From contig JBKHJJ010000001.1 in the NCBI GenBank assembly GCA_046538185.1, positions 1 to 38,235 of the forward strand: a stretch of DNA of 38,235 nt. The letters are read 5' to 3'. Of this stretch, positions 2,452-12,520 are shown one piece after another. The DNA is from Dehalococcoidia bacterium (GTDB lineage Bacteria > Chloroflexota > Dehalococcoidia > GIF9 > AB-539-J10). The notes below the pieces were generated by a model, which saw only the letters and a program-made list of their open reading frames with translations, was not told the origin of the DNA and made no database searches. A program made the position numbers and the translations under genes. Numbering within the stretch: position 1 is the stretch's first letter; the number at the start of each line of letters is the position of its first letter.

Positions 2452-2711
2452 TCACTTTCGTTCTGCCTGCCAGCGTTTCCCCGTTCGTGCTCTGCAGAGG
2501 TGTTAGGTTGCTGCATCACCTGAGAAACCGCTATTTCTGTACAGTCGTCCCCGGACGGCAGTCCTGCCTATGAGCATACGGAGACGCTTAGGCTCGCCCA
2601 GCGGTAGGTGAAGCTAGCTTCAGCATGGTGTGGCGACGCGTGGAACCGTGGCCAACAACTGGCGGCTGTGCATGTTGGAACCCCATATTGCATCCAACAA
2701 CCTGCAGCACG

Positions 2712-2740
2712 TTGACAGTTACGAATGTTCGTGCTAGAAT
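2712..2740 (+). promoter_or_regulatory. Sigma70-type promoter candidate for the giant surface-protein gene
   Basis: TTGACA (2712-2717), 17-nt spacer, TAGAAT (2735-2740), about 50 nt upstream of GTG 2791. Confidence 0.5.
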
Positions 2741-2790
2741 TGCTTATCCTGTAGCGGTGCTGCGATAGGAGTCTTTGGGGGCGTGGTCTC

Positions 2791-5700
2791 GTGTGTACAC
2801 ACCACAATGGGCAAAGAGTATTCGGTTTCCTAGTTACTGTTATCCTTTCACTATCCCTCTTGTCAGGCGGCCTTCTATTCAGCGCCCATGGCAAGACCGC
2901 TTCCGCTGCCGACACTGTCTTCTACGACTTTGTCTCCCAGGCTGCCAGCGCGTCCTGGTCCAGCGGCGCCGGCAGCCTGCCCTTCCCCGGCAGCGATACC
3001 GACAGCCGTGGGTTCGCCCTTTACAGGGATGACTGTCATCTTGAGGACGATAGCACCTGGGCAAGAGTTCTGGAAACTCACCCGCAGTGGGTAAGTGACG
3101 GCTGGATAATGGGTGTGTATCCCGAGATGACAGTTGCCTCCGGCGCCGAGCTCAAAATCACCGTGGGATTTTTCAAAGGGGCTGCCGAAAGCGATGGCGT
3201 AACCTTTGAGGTTAAGTTTGAAGAGTTTCTCGGTCTGAATGTGGCGCCCAAAATCCATTCTATTCTCAGCCATAAAGCAACCTACGATGGTGAGCTCGAC
3301 TCTATGACCACGGATTTAGAATCTGTGGAGGGCAAAACAGGTAACTTCGTCTTGTATGCTAACGCCGGACAGGACTCCGGCCAGGACTGGGCAGCCTGGG
3401 CTGAGGCGAAGATTGAAGTAGAGGCTGACACAACTCCACCAATCGTCACAATAGGCCATTCCCCCTCAGAGGTCACTACCGCTGACATTGTCACTTTCAC
3501 AGCTCAGGCAGAAGATGATAGCAGCGTCCTCAATATGCTGATTTTTGTAGACGGTCAGCAGGTCAAGGCGTGTGCTCCTCCGAGCCAAAAGACCGATGGC
3601 CAAGGAGGAACATACTGGGAATGCGTTTACACCGGCGGACCCTATGACGAAGGCACGCTAACTTATCAGGCCGAGGCTCTTGACAGCTATCAGAATCGCG
3701 GTGTCTCCAGTGAGGGAAGCGTTGATGTTACTGTCTCCATTACTCCGGTCCAACCACCGCTCACAGCCTGTTTGTTCTCCATTTCTGGCACCATCCACGA
3801 TTTCTGGCATGACTCAGCAACGCTTAAGATTGAGATATGCGAGGCTGAAACGATCATAGCCCAAATAGGCGGCAAAACAGTGCCGGTAACAACCTGTAAG
3901 GAAGGGGGCCGCGTCTGGCGTGTTGATACAAACAGGCTGTTCTCTGGCGATCTACCCGGTCCCGATTTGACCTATCGGGCGGGCCGTCTTTGTCCCGGAA
4001 CATACATTGTCACTCCCGTCTATCAACCGGGTGTGGACCTTTGCGAGTGGCAGGGTAGCTGGCAGACCGCCAAGGGGCAGGTAGTCAGAATTGAAGATGC
4101 CAACGCTGAAGGTTTCGATTTTGCCTTCGAACCGGAGGACTCGAGTGCCCCGCGGATCAGCAGCATAACGGCTGAGCCCGAACACCCGGAGCTCGGCGAA
4201 GATGTGGTCATTACCATTCTGACCCAGGACGATGGGGAGATATCCGCCATCTGGGAAAAGACGGATACGGTATTTGTAGACGGTTCGTTTCACGCTGGCC
4301 ACTGGCACAGCTTGACCGTAAGCCCCGGGATGCTGGGCAGCACGGCTGGGGCTCAGTTCTCACTGACCGACGACCGCATCATGCAGGCCACGGTAAGAGC
4401 CAGGGTATGCGACAGCGGGGGTAACAGCCACATGGCACAAATGACCGTTCAATTCGGCAGCTGTGATGACGGTATCCAGAACCAGGGGGAAACAGGTGTG
4501 GACTGTGGCGGCCCCTGCCCTTCCGAGTGCAAAAACTGCCTGAACGATGCCACAATAGGGGACGGCACTTCGGCTTATTTGTATAGCCCGGACCAGATTG
4601 AGTACGTAAGAGGCTGGGCCCTGGGAGCCGTTTCGGAATATGCCGATGTAATGGGGATAGATCCTTTCGAGCTTGATACCAGTGACGAGTATATTGAAGC
4701 TATTGCCTGGTGGGTACCTACTCATATGGGTTATCGAGGAGATGATATCAATAGACAGGTCCTATGCGATGTAATGGACCTTGATTTTGACATCTGTGAT
4801 TGCGAGCTGTGTGATTTCTGGCAGCCAGCTTACTACATCTTGAACTACAGCGGACGAGCACAAAGTACGGACCCTTCTAAGTGGTTCTTCGGGGACTGCG
4901 ACGACTTCGCTATACTTAGCTCTGCCTTGCTCAGGTCACTGGGAGTAAGCCACAAGTGCATCTTCATTGCCACGCAGCCCGGGCATGCATTTAACATTGT
5001 CAATTATCACAGTAAGCACAGGATATTAGAGCCGCAGAACAGCGCCATTGGTTGCGAAGACTATGTGCCAGAGCTCATTCTCAACGACAAAATAGATTGG
5101 GTCAGCCCCTGGCAGTATACTATGAATTACCCGGGGTGCGAGAACCCAACAGTGTCAGTCACTGGTGGGGGCTTTGGTGCCAAGATGCTGTGGCTCGACT
5201 GGAGCGGCTGGGGAGAATACCCGGCGCTGGCCGTAGGAGACTTCGATAGCGACGGTCGTGACGATATCGCCGCTGTGTATAATGATTGGGATACGCGGGA
5301 TTTTGTTGCTGTTGTTTTCCCATCCACCGGCTCTGGTTTCCAGGCGCCGTCGGCGGCATTGCCTGAACCATATCCATCGCACCCTGGCGTCATGGTCGGT
5401 AATCGTCCCGAGGGCGACTTCATCGTGATCACGGAACACGGATACTCCGGCGGTTTTAGAGAAGCAATAGGAACGATGGCAGCCTGCCCTTCGTCAATAG
5501 TGGGGCATGAGCCAACCAGCGAGACGGACGTTATATGCTTCGGAGATCCGCGAGGGAGTGGCACAGATACTGTAATTGAATTCTCTCGAGGAGATACACA
5601 CAAGGTCAGAGTCTGCCATACGGTCTGGAACGACGCGTTCTGCCCGCGCGATGAACTGCCCCTTGTAGGTGACTTCGATGGCGACGGTTATGACGATGCC

Positions 5701-8914: not shown

Positions 8915-9472
8915 ATGAAAAACATATTTCGTGATAAGACAAGAGACGATTTAGCTCGAAACCTCAACTCCCTGGGTATCAGGGCGAAGCTGGCCGGGCG
9001 TGGCCGGGTGGAAGAAAAAGTTGAGAATTTATGGTATCAACGTTCTCTGGGAATCATAGACATATCAGAAGGGTCGGTCGGGTGGATTAACATCTTGAAG
9101 AAGGACGGAAGCAAGAATAGCCCTCCGCGGTGGTGGGTCATTCTTGGTATTCCGGATGAGCGACCTCTGTCAAATCACAAGGCGGTTGACATCAAGACAA
9201 TCAGGAAGAAGGCATTTCCATTGTTCGGGAAAGTGGTAGACGTGACCTGGGAAGGTGACGATCATCATACCGGGCTAGCCGAGGTTCTTTCCAACGATGA
9301 AGCAGTAAAGAACTTGGCGAAGGGGATTGGGAATCTGACACTTCACAGCTATGCCAGGGAATTCCAGGGATGGACACTACAGGTGGATAGGCGATTTGAG
9401 CCGACCAGCCAGGATTGGGCAGCAATCCAGAAGATTGCTAACTACATCCTTTCATCAGCCCGTGTGTACTAG
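8915..9472 (+). CDS. Hypothetical soluble protein, 185 aa, no recognised family
   Basis: Clean ORF with a protein-like composition. I recognise no motifs in it. Confidence 0.6.
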   Translation: MKNIFRDKTRDDLARNLNSLGIRAKLAGRGRVEEKVENLWYQRSLGIIDISEGSVGWINILKKDGSKNSPPRWWVILGIPDERPLSNHKAVDIKTIRKKAFPLFGKVVDVTWEGDDHHTGLAEVLSNDEAVKNLAKGIGNLTLHSYAREFQGWTLQVDRRFEPTSQDWAAIQKIANYILSSARVY

Positions 9473-9492
9473 CTAGGGCCGGAGCGATTAAG

Positions 9493-9582
9493 CTAAGGCA
9501 AGCCTACGAACAGTATCACCAGGCCCACCACCAGCATCGTCACCCCCAAAGCTAATAAGCCAATCAATAGCTTCTTGTTCAT
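9493..9582 (-). CDS. Possible 29-aa single-TM peptide (MNKKLLIGLLALGVTMLVVGLVILFVGLP)
   Basis: Found by hand, as it is below the ORF-track cutoff. It starts with ATG and is strongly hydrophobic. No clear SD. Confidence 0.25.
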   Translation of the reverse strand: MNKKLLIGLLALGVTMLVVGLVILFVGLP

Positions 9583-9771
9583 GTGTAGAACCATTGCCGA
9601 GCAGGTCTCCTGCTATAGTACTAGAACGCCAAAGAAAATGAAAGGACTGCCGCCTTAGAAGAAGCAAAATGGACACTGAATCTTCCCTAACAGGCGCGGC
9701 TGGTGGAGCTATGCTTGTTGGAAGATGAGTGTTTGGATGTCGGCGCAATTCGACCAGGAGTTCTTTCCGTA

Positions 9772-9800
9772 TTGACACGGTTATACGCGAGGACTATAAT
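9772..9800 (+). promoter_or_regulatory. Consensus sigma70 promoter of the mgtE leader
   Basis: TTGACA (9772-9777), exactly 17 nt, TATAAT (9795-9800). Both hexamers match the consensus perfectly. Confidence 0.6.
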
Positions 9801-9824
9801 CGTCCACGGAACGAGATACAAGGT

Positions 9825-9905
9825 ATGGAAAAGAGATCATCACCAGACCCAGACCATAAACCGCGACAGATTGGCATTTTCGTTCGGTGGTGGGACTTGC
9901 CTTAG
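9825..9905 (+). CDS. Candidate leader mini-ORF (MEKRSSPDPDHKPRQIGIFVRWWDLP)
   Basis: 26 codons inside the leader, with four Pro codons. The SD is weak and too close (AAGG, 1 nt from the ATG). Speculative. Confidence 0.2.
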   Translation: MEKRSSPDPDHKPRQIGIFVRWWDLP

Positions 9906-9931
9906 AATAGGTCTCTGATTGAGGCGTCTGT

Positions 9932-9966
9932 GCCCCACGTCCCACCGGACGTGGGGCGTTTTGTTT
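9932..9966 (+). terminator. Intrinsic terminator immediately upstream of the mgtE start codon
   Basis: Perfect 11-bp stem: GCCCCACGTCC (9932-9942), loop CACC, GGACGTGGGGC (9947-9957). It is followed by GTTTTGTTTG. The ATG is at 9976. Confidence 0.7.
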
Positions 9967-9975
9967 GTCTGTAAA

Positions 9976-11349
9976 ATGAGCGAACAGTTTACCGGAAGGG
10001 TACCAACAGAGGCTCTGGATGAAAGCACATTCAAAGGCCTGCTGGAGAACAAGGAATACAGAGCTTTGCGGGAGAGGCTCGTAGGTACAGACCCCGGGAA
10101 TATTGCCGACTTGCTGGGCACTGTGTCGGCGGACAACGCCGTGATAGCATTCCGCCTTCTCCCCAAAGACCTTGCCATCGATGTCTTCGACAATATGGAC
10201 GGGGTGCTTCAGAACCTGATGCTTGAGGCGTTCAGCGACCAGGCGGCAAGGAATTTCTTAGAGGCAATGCCCCCTGATGACCGGACCGAGTTGCTGGAGG
10301 AGGTACCAGCGAAGGTAGCGCGCAGGCTGTTACAGATACTCTCGCCCGAGCAACGCCGTCTCACCATGCAGCTGCTGGGCTATGATGAAGAGACCGCCGG
10401 GCGTGAGATGACCCCTCTGTTTGTAGACCTGCACGGCGATATGACTGTGGCACAGGCTCTGAAAAGGGTCCGACAGTTGGCCATCAACCGGGAGACTGTG
10501 TACGAGTGCTATGTGATGGACCGCCGCCGCTATCTTATAGGAACTGTGTCACTCAAGGACCTGGTCATGGCTGACCAGGATGCCAGCGTAAGCGATATCA
10601 TGGAACCAGACCCGCCATTTGTGTTCACCCATACCGACCGCGAGGAGGTAGCCAGGGAGCTTCGAGAACATAGCCTGCTGGCAATTCCAGTGGTGGATGC
10701 AGAGCAGCGTCTCGTCGGTATCATCACTCATGATGATGTGGCGGACATCCTGGAACAGGAAGCCACCGAAGATATCTATCGCTTTGGTGCGGTACCAGGT
10801 ACGGAGCGAGGCTACTTTGCCGGCCGTATCCTTGACGTTGTCCGGCGCCGGACGCCATGGCTTTTCTTGCTTATCGCGGTCAGCCTGATTATCGCCCCTA
10901 TTATTCTGAGGCAGGAAGAATGGCTCGCCGAGATATATATACTGGCTGCCTTCATCCCTTTGGTGATAGCCGCCGGCGGGAATGTGGGAGCACAATCGGC
11001 CACCGTGGTTATTCGCGGGCTGGCCACGGGGGAGGTAAACCCGAGACGGGCTCTGGCCGTCATCTTGAGGGAGGTTGGGATAGGCGCTATCATGGGCGTT
11101 GCCCTCGGCGCGGTTGCCCTGGGTATGGCTTATGCGTTTGGGCGCAACTTGGCAGCAGCCGCTGTGGTGGGCATCACCCTGATAGGCATCTCTGTAATGG
11201 CAACCCTGGTGGGAGGAGCATTACCATTTGTTTTTCGTTTATTCAAGACTGACCCGGCTCTGGTGTCGGCACCGTTCATAACTACAATTATGGATATATT
11301 TGGGGTAGCACTCTACTTCGGGATTGCGCGAATAGTACTTGGGCTGTAG
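9976..11349 (+). CDS. mgtE: Magnesium transporter MgtE
   Basis: MgtE N-domain (FRLLPKDLAIDVFDNMD...), a CBS pair (YVMDRRRYLIGTVSLKDL..., AIPVVDAEQRLVGIITHDDV) and a C-terminal 5-TM domain (IPLVIAAGGNVGAQS...). Start is taken at ATG 9976 rather than the track start at 9919, which would read through the terminator. Confidence 0.95.
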   Translation: MSEQFTGRVPTEALDESTFKGLLENKEYRALRERLVGTDPGNIADLLGTVSADNAVIAFRLLPKDLAIDVFDNMDGVLQNLMLEAFSDQAARNFLEAMPPDDRTELLEEVPAKVARRLLQILSPEQRRLTMQLLGYDEETAGREMTPLFVDLHGDMTVAQALKRVRQLAINRETVYECYVMDRRRYLIGTVSLKDLVMADQDASVSDIMEPDPPFVFTHTDREEVARELREHSLLAIPVVDAEQRLVGIITHDDVADILEQEATEDIYRFGAVPGTERGYFAGRILDVVRRRTPWLFLLIAVSLIIAPIILRQEEWLAEIYILAAFIPLVIAAGGNVGAQSATVVIRGLATGEVNPRRALAVILREVGIGAIMGVALGAVALGMAYAFGRNLAAAAVVGITLIGISVMATLVGGALPFVFRLFKTDPALVSAPFITTIMDIFGVALYFGIARIVLGL

Positions 11350-11446: not shown

Positions 11447-12520
11447 ATGAAGCGACTGCAAAAGCTGCGCACGTCAATTGCCGAAATGGGATTGGACGCT
11501 CTTCTGATTTCTCAGCCGCAGAACCGCCGGTATATTTCGGGATTTACCGGATCGGCCGGATGGCTGTTCGTTTCAGTGCAAAATGCTGTTCTGGCTACCG
11601 ATTTCCGCTATATAGAGCAAGCTAAGGGAGAGTCGGCAGAGTTTGAAATTATCCAGACGAAGCGAGAGCTACGTGACTGGCTTCCCGGTCTCGTCCGTGA
11701 CTCAGGATGGCGCAAATTGGGCTTCGAGGCTGACGTGGTTTCTTATGATGGTTATCAGAAGCTCAGCGAGGCAACAGAGACCAACGGAGACAGCCTTGAG
11801 CTTGTTTCTACCAAAGGCCTGGTGGAGCATCTCCGCTCCATCAAAGAGCCGGGAGAACTGGAGTTAATCAGCAGGGCAGTGGCTCTGGCTGATACCGCTT
11901 TTGAACAAGCAAAGGCGTTAATTCATCCAGGCATCACCGAAAAGGAAGTGGCCTGGGAGATAGAGGAACTGCTTCATCAGGGAGGGAGCGAGGGCGCCGC
12001 TTTTGAAATCATTGTGGCTTCCGGCCCAAATTCGGCCCTCCCTCATGCTCAACCTACAGAGAGACGAATTAGTCGCGGTGAGCCAGTCTTGATTGACATG
12101 GGGGCTAGATTCCGTGGTTACTGCAGCGACCTGAGTCGCACGGTTTTCCTGGGCGAACCAGGCAAGGCCCTGGGGCAAGTTTATGATATAGTTTCGAAAG
12201 CACAGGCTGCCGCCATAGAGGGAGTGCAATCCGGCATGAGCGCTTCCCAGGTGGATGAACTGGCCCGAAGTGTCATTGAGCAGGCTGGATATGGAACAGA
12301 CTTCGGACATGGCCTGGGACACGGGGTCGGCCTGGCAGTACACGAGTTGCCTGCGCTCGGGCCCACCTCTGCCGATTCGCTCGCCGATGGCATGGTTTTT
12401 ACCATCGAACCGGGAATCTATCTGCCGGGGCAGGGCGGGGTCAGAATCGAGGACATAGTAGTATTGACGAACGGAAAGGCCAGGGTGCTAAGCAGGGCAA
12501 GCAGGGACTTGTTAATTTGA
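11447..12520 (+). CDS. Xaa-Pro aminopeptidase/dipeptidase (peptidase M24B)
   Basis: N-terminal creatinase-like domain (GLDALLISQPQNRRYISGF). The pita-bread metal ligands are in context (LIDMGARFRGYCSDLSRT, GHGLGHGVGLAVHE, FTIEPGIY, VRIEDIV). GAGGAG lies 10 nt upstream of ATG 11447. Confidence 0.9.
   Translation: MKRLQKLRTSIAEMGLDALLISQPQNRRYISGFTGSAGWLFVSVQNAVLATDFRYIEQAKGESAEFEIIQTKRELRDWLPGLVRDSGWRKLGFEADVVSYDGYQKLSEATETNGDSLELVSTKGLVEHLRSIKEPGELELISRAVALADTAFEQAKALIHPGITEKEVAWEIEELLHQGGSEGAAFEIIVASGPNSALPHAQPTERRISRGEPVLIDMGARFRGYCSDLSRTVFLGEPGKALGQVYDIVSKAQAAAIEGVQSGMSASQVDELARSVIEQAGYGTDFGHGLGHGVGLAVHELPALGPTSADSLADGMVFTIEPGIYLPGQGGVRIEDIVVLTNGKARVLSRASRDLLI

Follow-up and report, generated by a model that had tools for sequence, protein, structure and literature searches.

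Genes for the magnesium (Mg2+) channel MgtE are usually described as being under the control of the M-box riboswitch, as in Firmicutes. What, then, controls mgtE in a Dehalococcoidia bacterium (phylum Chloroflexota) in which the gene follows directly upon a consensus promoter, a short open reading frame (ORF) and an intrinsic terminator? We addressed this question in contig JBKHJJ010000001.1 of assembly GCA_046538185.1, of which positions 1 to 38,235, further referred to as the window, were analysed. The comparison of the mgtE leader with those of related loci of uncultured Dehalococcoidia makes it likely, in our judgement, that the leader is a ribosome-controlled, translation-coupled attenuator of mgtE that operates through an intrinsic terminator. 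Mg2+ is put forward as its signal more tentatively.

Conservation of the mgtE leader

Proteins related to the MgtE of the window, hundreds of sequences with 67-97% identity, all derive from metagenome-assembled genomes (MAGs) and metagenomes of uncultured Dehalococcoidia and Dehalococcoidales (Chloroflexota). DNA of 160 mgtE loci was fetched, the intergenic DNA of the window was compared by BLAST, and more distant mgtE loci were added through further protein searches. Promoter, mini-ORF and terminator were found to be kept jointly upstream of mgtE in about 70 Dehalococcoidia loci. In the main family, approximately 65 loci with MgtE proteins 74-97% identical, the conserved block starts exactly at the -35 box and ends at the U-tract (72-96% nucleotide identity), and DNA 5' of the -35 box is not conserved. 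The alignment of this family comprised 60 distinct leaders, with a column entropy of 0.36 in the ORF, 0.19 in the terminator and 1.33 upstream of the -35 box; pairing and reading frames were counted in 68 leaders.

The promoter (9772-9800, forward strand) is of the sigma-70 type and matches the consensus at 12 of 12 positions, with TTGACA at 9772-9777, a spacer of 17 nucleotides (nt) and TATAAT at 9795-9800. A first-pass annotation of the window had called it perfect, and rightly so: the arrangement occurs only once in the 38-kb window and was absent from 100 dinucleotide shuffles. Both hexamers are invariant in the 60 related leaders, with variable spacer and upstream DNA. From the position of the -10 box, transcription is expected to start at about 9806-9808, and the leader would be approximately 169 nt long if the start lies near 9807. 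The predicted 5' untranslated region of the mini-ORF, GGAACGAGAUACAAGGU (9806-9824, forward strand), is more than 90% conserved in the main family.

At its other end the leader is closed by an intrinsic terminator on the forward strand. The hairpin (9932-9957) has an 11-base-pair stem, formed by the 5' arm GCCCCACGUCC (9932-9942) and the 3' arm GGACGUGGGGC (9947-9957) around the loop CACC (9943-9946), and is followed by the U-rich tract GUUUUGUUUG (9958-9967), a feature present in all related leaders. The GC-rich hairpin and U-tract just before mgtE that the first reading had described are thus real, extending over 9932-9967 and ending 8 nt before the ATG. The hairpin has a folding energy of -24.9 kcal/mol (z = -4.8; none of 200 shuffles folded as well). 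In the 68 sequences 98.8% of the cells of the stem are paired and five of the 11 pairs change on both sides, values reached by none of 500 shuffles. Leader and hairpin, first described in the window, are therefore both kept in some 70 loci, with a covarying terminator stem. It should be added that, as far as the window and the fetched loci (about 1 Mb) are concerned, the apex motif of the hairpin is confined to mgtE leaders.

Selection on the leader ORF

The mini-ORF (9825-9905, forward strand) consists of 26 codons and a TAG stop and would encode MEKRSSPDPDHKPRQIGIFVRWWDLP. It had been listed in the first-pass annotation, and relatives provide it with a coding signature. Its frame is open in 67-68 of the 68 aligned leaders, with ORFs of 24-35 codons, whereas the two alternative frames are open in 35 and 0. 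Of the 60 main-family leaders, 57 have an intact ORF, two a 1-nt insertion and one an ACG start, and all indels of the ORF except these two insertions are multiples of three. Such in-frame changes include the absence of one TGG codon in the group of the window relative to other main-family leaders, a +3 indel in locus L013 and a -3 indel in L012 and L108.

Codons 5-12 (9837-9860, forward strand) encode the acidic/proline core SSPDPDHK, within which PDPD (9843-9854) is the proposed site of ribosome failure. The ratio of non-synonymous to synonymous variation (pN/pS) is 0.15 for this core vs approximately 0.7 for codons 2-4 and 13-19. Variation in S6-P7-D8-P9-D10 is concentrated at third codon positions, and the Pro codons of the core vary freely among CCA, CCU, CCG and CCC. 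Coding selection on the mini-ORF is thus limited to the N-terminal core. Both in the window and in nearly all other lineages the first 10 residues hold four to five D, E or P after S or T, the exception being L173. In locus L101 (2318-2503) an in-frame duplication of 12 nt has turned PDPD into PDPDPDPD, a natural expansion of the proposed destabilising motif.

The codons of V20-R21-W22-W23-W24 are invariant at all three positions, synonymous sites included, which points to a constraint at the level of RNA. A Trp-rich arrest peptide at the C-terminus (RWWWG, TnaC-like) was considered and rejected: the nucleotides of this part are conserved across lineages, but the peptide is not. Ten variants of the leader peptide were absent from a collection of 15 billion proteins, and four leader peptides had no Pfam or NCBIfam match at E up to 10.

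As a separate observation, the two leaders with 1-nt insertions, L082 and L113 (each 2329-2503), have them in a T-run of the ORF, so that the C-terminal half becomes ...QICHFRSMVVGLALV and the stop is shifted by a few bases in the 3' direction, whereas the N-terminal motif and every RNA element are retained. These frameshifts could be sequencing errors, or the C-terminal peptide could be dispensable.

A predicted anti-terminator overlapping the leader ORF

The strand that competes with the terminator lies in the ORF itself. In the window, codons 19-24 (9881-9896, forward strand) form the 5' strand of an anti-terminator, in which CGUUCGGUGG (9881-9890) pairs with 9942-9951 and UGGGAC (9891-9896) with 9932-9937; the 3' strand (9932-9951, forward strand) is made of the same bases as the 5' arm, the loop and the proximal 3' arm of the terminator. 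Pairing of 9881-9890 with 9942-9951 is perfect in the window, where a synonymous CGA>CGG change closes an A x C mismatch of most relatives. In the main family, CGUUCGAUGG pairs with CCACCGGACG, a segment that begins at the final base of the 5' arm, takes in the loop and reaches five bases into the 3' arm; GUGGGGC, immediately after CGUUCGAUGG, pairs with GCCCCAC at the start of the 5' arm. Complementarity spans codons 19-26 of the ORF in most relatives.

Nascent RNA of the window (9878-9952) folds as the anti-terminator with -30.3 kcal/mol, the corresponding RNA of L119 with -33.0 kcal/mol, and those of L175 and L177 adopt it too. The full-length leader prefers the terminator (-56.3 kcal/mol vs -43.9 kcal/mol with the anti-terminator forced), which is the usual kinetic design of attenuators. 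For seven Dehalococcoidales leaders RNAalifold returned, unprompted, a fold of ORF codons (GCGUUCAAUGGG) with the loop and proximal 3' arm of the terminator.

Across the 68 sequences 90.5% of the anti-terminator cells are paired, a figure that drops to 35-53% when the partners are slid, and in four of the pairs both sides have changed. Variants that keep the pairing comprise U-A>C-G in L012 and L108, A-U in L115 and in the Dehalococcoidales subfamily (loop CAUC), and those of L007, all paired via wobbles; in L170, GUGGG>GCGGG occurs together with an A-U>G-C change of the terminator stem. An unbiased scan of the main family for covarying column pairs gave only noise, because its sequences are too similar.

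For each lineage we further determined which segment pairs best with the terminator from its 5' arm through the loop to the sixth base of the 3' arm, and compared the energy with that of 500 shuffles. In seven of eight lineages, L175 with its unrelated sequence included, this partner falls within ORF codons 18/19-26, and in six lineages its energy is in the top 1-5% of shuffles. Shuffles at or below the observed energy numbered 14 for the window, 5 for L119, 6 for L170, 9 for L175, 7 for L177 and 25 for L019, each of 500, whereas the result for L173 (50/500) is not convincing. The V-R-W codons and the terminator loop are invariant because a three-way constraint acts on them, from the codons, the anti-terminator and the terminator.

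Competing pairings within the leader had been suspected from the outset, and alternatives to the terminator do exist; the competitor, however, is 9881-9896 and not either of the two helices originally named. The complementarity of the latter is genuine, though one base off: TCATCACC (9837-9844) is complementary to GGTGGTGG at 9886-9893, and GGTCT at 9910-9914 to AGACC at 9845-9849 or 9851-9855. Both helices were rejected, as they show no covariation and pair no better than shuffles; in the first, an A-U pair is broken in 44 of 58 sequences. Minimum free energy (MFE) folds also join the A-rich 5' end to the U-tract; this helix was likewise discarded, its variants being not compensatory on inspection of the alignment.

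Leaders of divergent lineages

Distant mgtE loci keep the order of consensus promoter, ORF of 24-31 codons, terminator and mgtE with differing sequences. The Dehalococcoidales from digesters (L019, L120, L161-L167 and L169) have peptides of the form M[EK]TKSD[KR]EPD[KQS]R...VCVQWVMP..., a covarying terminator and a genuine Shine-Dalgarno sequence before mgtE. The leader peptide begins MDSSSPQDPDHKRRYSAIIVRW... in L170 and MEAKSSLDPDHKRRLVTIFVRW... in L177 and L178. In L175 (leader at about 385-603) the peptide MSSKRLSDIDDKRR... is accompanied by the unrelated terminator AGCCUCAUGCCC-UCAGU-GGGCAUGAGGCU.

Common to the peptides of these lineages is an acidic cluster, usually with proline, at residues 6-11 or thereabouts, preceded by small residues and followed by K or R. 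The equivalents of the core in other lineages are DKEPDQR, SPQDPDHKRR, SLDPDHKRR and SDIDDKRR. The last of these, the proline-free acidic motif of L175, stands in an ORF in which the anti-terminator is still embedded. It should also be mentioned that only 7 nt separate the -10 box of L175 from the leader ATG, and its ORF may be leaderless.

Upstream of 89 more distant mgtE genes no acidic/proline ORFs were found. A candidate in L079 and L153 (KPEPG) was dismissed as a chance match, since it coincides with the hairpin that terminates a tRNA cluster.

Search for known RNA elements

In the entire window no match attained the gathering score of an Rfam family. When 9450-10100 was scanned permissively (E up to 10), there were chance-level matches only, without RF00380 (M-box) or the mgtA Mg sensor, in agreement with the original impression that the leader does not look like an M-box. 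Rfam also detected no M-box in six related Dehalococcoidia leaders. The intended positive control proved uninformative, because no M-box at gathering score was present in the 14 scanned cyanobacterial and Lachnospiraceae mgtE loci either (a subset of L021-L080 and L152-L157); the same scan of comparison loci did detect a lysine riboswitch and tRNAs. In the searchable literature, outside of which most papers of subscription journals lie, we found neither a leader peptide described for mgtE nor a description of any element of such kind, or of mgtE regulation, in Dehalococcoidia.

Proposed mechanism of control

The initial suggestion of an undescribed, translation-coupled attenuator other than an M-box gains support from the conservation of the leader, the coding selection on its motif, the covariation of the terminator, the existence and conservation of an anti-terminator that overlaps the ORF in several lineages, and the lack of matches in Rfam, Pfam and NCBIfam. 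According to the mechanism that we propose, the constitutive consensus promoter would start a leader of approximately 170 nt encoding a peptide of 26-27 residues. While the polymerase is still making the terminator, the anti-terminator is predicted to be the most stable fold of the nascent RNA. A ribosome that translates smoothly to the stop codon (9903-9905) would cover about 9888-9917 and block the anti-terminator, so that the terminator forms and mgtE is OFF. A ribosome that stalls or drops off at PDPD (9843-9854, footprint to about 9869) would leave 9881-9896 free; the anti-terminator could then form, with read-through and mgtE ON. We found no supported helix that sequesters the anti-terminator, and an untranslated leader is therefore predicted to be ON, with read-through as the default.

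What makes elongation fail is suggested by analogy. The EPDP motif of MgtL aborts translation more often at low Mg2+, and failed translation induces mgtA (bioRxiv 10.1101/2021.02.02.429294, PMC8934632, PMC11552253). Intrinsic ribosome destabilisation, of which EPDP of MgtL is the prototype and which long nascent chains counteract (same sources), has been characterised by at least four D, E or P in the first 10 residues, small residues before them and enhancement by low Mg2+ (bioRxiv 10.1101/2021.02.02.429294). To judge from its sequence, the core SSPDPDHK fits this description. By the same analogy, elongation failures at the acidic/proline motif would become more frequent as cytosolic Mg2+ falls, the ribosome itself being the Mg2+ sensor, and they would lead to read-through and more MgtE. 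Such induction would be physiologically sensible, given that mgtE is the only gene shared by all leader-bearing lineages. We nevertheless regard Mg2+ acting through ribosome destabilisation as a possible signal that we would slightly sooner doubt than accept.

Several points weigh against the proposed attenuator. Where transcription starts, that the ORF is translated and that termination takes place are predictions from MAG and metagenome sequences. A canonical, well-spaced Shine-Dalgarno sequence is absent from 9806-9824, ahead of the mini-ORF. Covariation of the anti-terminator is modest, which reflects the near-invariance of its two strands and the derivation of the structure from the very sequences compared. 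MFE folds contain a hairpin between the two anti-terminator strands, across the stop codon of the ORF, which was set aside since covariation does not support it. For L164, 383 of 500 shuffles were at or below the observed energy, which is not convincing, and in the Dehalococcoidales subfamily the competitor lies partly downstream of the ORF, making control by the ribosome less obvious there. The peptide motif has exceptions as well: L169 has ESD instead of EPD, L175 is without proline, and in L173 the peptide is unrelated and the motif missing. Finally, a motif scan of the upstream 330 nt, in which mini-ORF and terminator were not searched for, found no consensus promoter in L171, L172 and L174, whose MgtE is 75-77% identical to that of L170 and whose upstream regions are GC-rich; the element was accordingly lost, or never present, in some lineages. 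As to the signal, the tests made here do not tell Mg2+ from proline or another one.

Alternative explanations

The alternative that survives best retains the attenuator and changes its signal: the Pro (and Asp) codons would report the supply of charged tRNA-Pro, as under proline limitation or osmotic stress. We consider this unlikely, yet not to be neglected. Two Pro codons do lie within the selected core, the Pro codons of Salmonella mgtL and mgtP have reportedly been shown to report charged tRNA-Pro supply, and in 63 main-family loci mgtE is directly followed by a gene for an Xaa-Pro peptidase (M24 and Creatinase_N), which releases proline-containing products. Enterobacterial precedents for leader sensing through Pro codons have been described (PMC11552253). 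However, in the Dehalococcoidales subfamily only one Pro codon is present and mgtE is not followed by a peptidase gene, and the motifs of L169 and L175 are without Pro but keep the acidic residues. The free usage of CCA, CCU, CCG and CCC also speaks against codon sensing, and the feature that is invariant across lineages is the acidic cluster followed by K or R.

It is distinctly improbable that the mini-ORF is an independent small gene, for a small RNA of dual function or a protein of 26-31 residues, such as an MgtE modulator comparable to MgtS or MgtR, with mgtE expressed by constant leaky read-through. Promoter, ORF and strong terminator would indeed make a complete unit, and the conserved peptide always adjoins mgtE. 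But the 8 nt between U-tract and ATG leave no room for a separate mgtE promoter, purifying selection acts on eight residues only with the remainder near-neutral, and the hydrophobic stretch falls short of the length of a membrane helix. Moreover, the C-terminal half is lineage-specific and is replaced in the frameshifted L082 and L113, where complementarity to the terminator is kept, and an independent gene would give the conserved anti-terminator no purpose.

Least credible is a direct RNA sensor of Mg2+, another ligand or a protein, i.e. a new riboswitch-like element or protein-binding hairpin with an incidental or auxiliary ORF: although many mgtE genes elsewhere use the M-box, and a plain terminator would not require the position-by-position conservation that is seen in the hairpin apex ACGUCCCACCGGACGU and in parts of the leader, Rfam gave no match, no conserved multi-helix aptamer emerged and predicted helices other than terminator and anti-terminator lack covariation, pairing with the V-R-W codons accounts for the invariant apex, L175 has the same architecture with a different hairpin sequence, and the strongest selection, that on the peptide, would be left unexplained.

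mgtE and neighbouring genes

The mgtE gene (9976-11349, forward strand; ATG at 9976-9978, 8 nt after the U-tract) encodes a protein of 457 amino acids with the Pfam domains MgtE_N, CBS and MgtE. In the lineage of the window no Shine-Dalgarno sequence is recognisable before it (9968-9975), whereas in the Dehalococcoidales subfamily, L170, L175 and L177 the spacer is longer and clearly contains AAGAGG, AGGAG or AAGGAGG. Given this lack and the closeness of the ATG to the U-tract, the hairpin may also hinder initiation of mgtE translation in the lineage of the window. A leaderless mgtE mRNA from a promoter within the terminator was rejected, as there is no -10-like hexamer at the right distance.

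Upstream of the ATG the frame of mgtE continues without a stop across the terminator hairpin as far as a TTG at 9919 (9919-11349, forward strand). Many public gene models of MgtE relatives have 462-477 amino acids as opposed to 457; they probably start upstream and translate the terminator, apparently a systematic misannotation of the start codon. The annotation is corrected here in both respects, as gene calls have always missed the mini-ORF and, for mgtE, many public models extend through the terminator.

Downstream of mgtE lies the Xaa-Pro peptidase gene (11447-12520, forward strand; Pfam Creatinase_N and Peptidase_M24), whose ORF opens at 11339 and whose start is likely the ATG at 11447. 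Its homologue directly follows mgtE on the same strand in 63 related loci. In the lineage of the window it is probably co-transcribed with mgtE and would then probably be under the control of the same attenuator. This adjacency links a proline-containing leader peptide with a proline-specific peptidase.

Two further observations concern the surroundings. Divergent from the leader, a 33-codon hydrophobic ORF, MNKKLLIGLLALGVTMLVVGLVILFVGLP (9493-9594, reverse strand), has 78-97% amino-acid identity in 16 related loci and no Pfam match, and is probably a real gene for a small membrane protein. In L121 (924-3871), mgtE genes stand in tandem (about 1098-2477 and 2501-3871), with the leader before the first only.

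Significance and comparison with known systems

It is possible, though we would not yet call it probable, that Chloroflexota independently evolved a switch in which the ribosome serves as Mg2+ sensor and the failure of an acidic/proline peptide is read out by an anti-terminator and terminator before mgtE. If so, ribosome-based Mg2+ sensing would be extended to a third transporter family and a distant phylum, and, together with mgtL-mgtA and corL-corA, the same principle would have been adopted by all three major classes of bacterial Mg2+ transporters. The gauging of cytosolic Mg2+ through intrinsic ribosome destabilisation would then be general and ancient and not an enterobacterial peculiarity. 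The leader would furthermore offer a compact, transplantable system (about 200 nt, with consensus promoter and intrinsic terminator) for testing Mg2+ sensing by acidic/proline nascent chains, with PDPD, EPD, DIDD and the PDPDPDPD duplication as natural variants for structure-function work.

With the M-box (ykoK, RF00380) the leader shares its position before mgtE, premature intrinsic termination and presumably the physiological purpose. It differs in being too short, in lacking a multi-helix aptamer and in that the conserved candidate for a sensor is an ORF predicted to be translated. The Mbox of Mycobacterium tuberculosis reportedly comes with a conserved small upstream ORF, the aptamer sensing and controlling this ORF and Rho-dependent termination (PMC12810186). 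The likeness consists in the link to Mg2+ homeostasis and the small conserved upstream ORF, and the difference in the sensor, which is the aptamer there and is proposed to be the ORF in the mgtE leader, where no aptamer is detectable.

Attenuators of the trpL, hisL and pheL type likewise combine a leader ORF, an intrinsic terminator and an anti-terminator strand in or next to the ORF, and which hairpin forms depends on where the leading ribosome stands. Unlike them, the mgtE leader shows no clear run of codons for an amino acid related to the operon, and selection appears to act on the peptide motif and not on codon identity; the core of the window has two Pro and two Asp codons, other lineages one Pro codon or none. 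The 1:2 anti-anti-terminator helix of the trp type has no supported counterpart.

To our knowledge, control of Mg2+ transporters by leader peptides is known only for enterobacterial mgtA/mgtCBR and corA. Like mgtL-mgtA, corL-corA and mgtP/mgtM-mgtCBR, the locus has a short ORF within the leader of an Mg2+ transporter gene and, as in the mgtL, corL and mgtP leaders, two mutually exclusive RNA folds would be chosen by the progress of the ribosome. The peptide resembles MgtL in an N-terminal acidic/proline cluster followed by basic residues, and the predicted logic is the same, efficient translation of the upstream ORF repressing the transporter and failed elongation inducing it. On the other hand, neither peptide nor RNA homology is detectable, and by eye only PDP and RR align with MgtL. 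The motif starts at residue 2 in MgtL and at residue 7-8 in Dehalococcoidia. The transporters are a P-type ATPase or CorA in Enterobacteria and an MgtE channel in Chloroflexota; the OFF state of mgtL-type leaders is Rho-dependent, whereas here a strong intrinsic terminator is placed at the start codon; and the PhoP-dependent promoter of mgtL contrasts with the consensus promoter of the mgtE leader, predicted to be constitutive. Mg2+ dependence is established for mgtL, while for the Dehalococcoidia leader Mg2+ is suggested by the regulated gene and the likeness of the motif. Judged by its sequence, the mgtE leader thus belongs neither to these families nor to the M-box, and appears as a functional counterpart of mgtL-mgtA and corL-corA that is built from unrelated parts.

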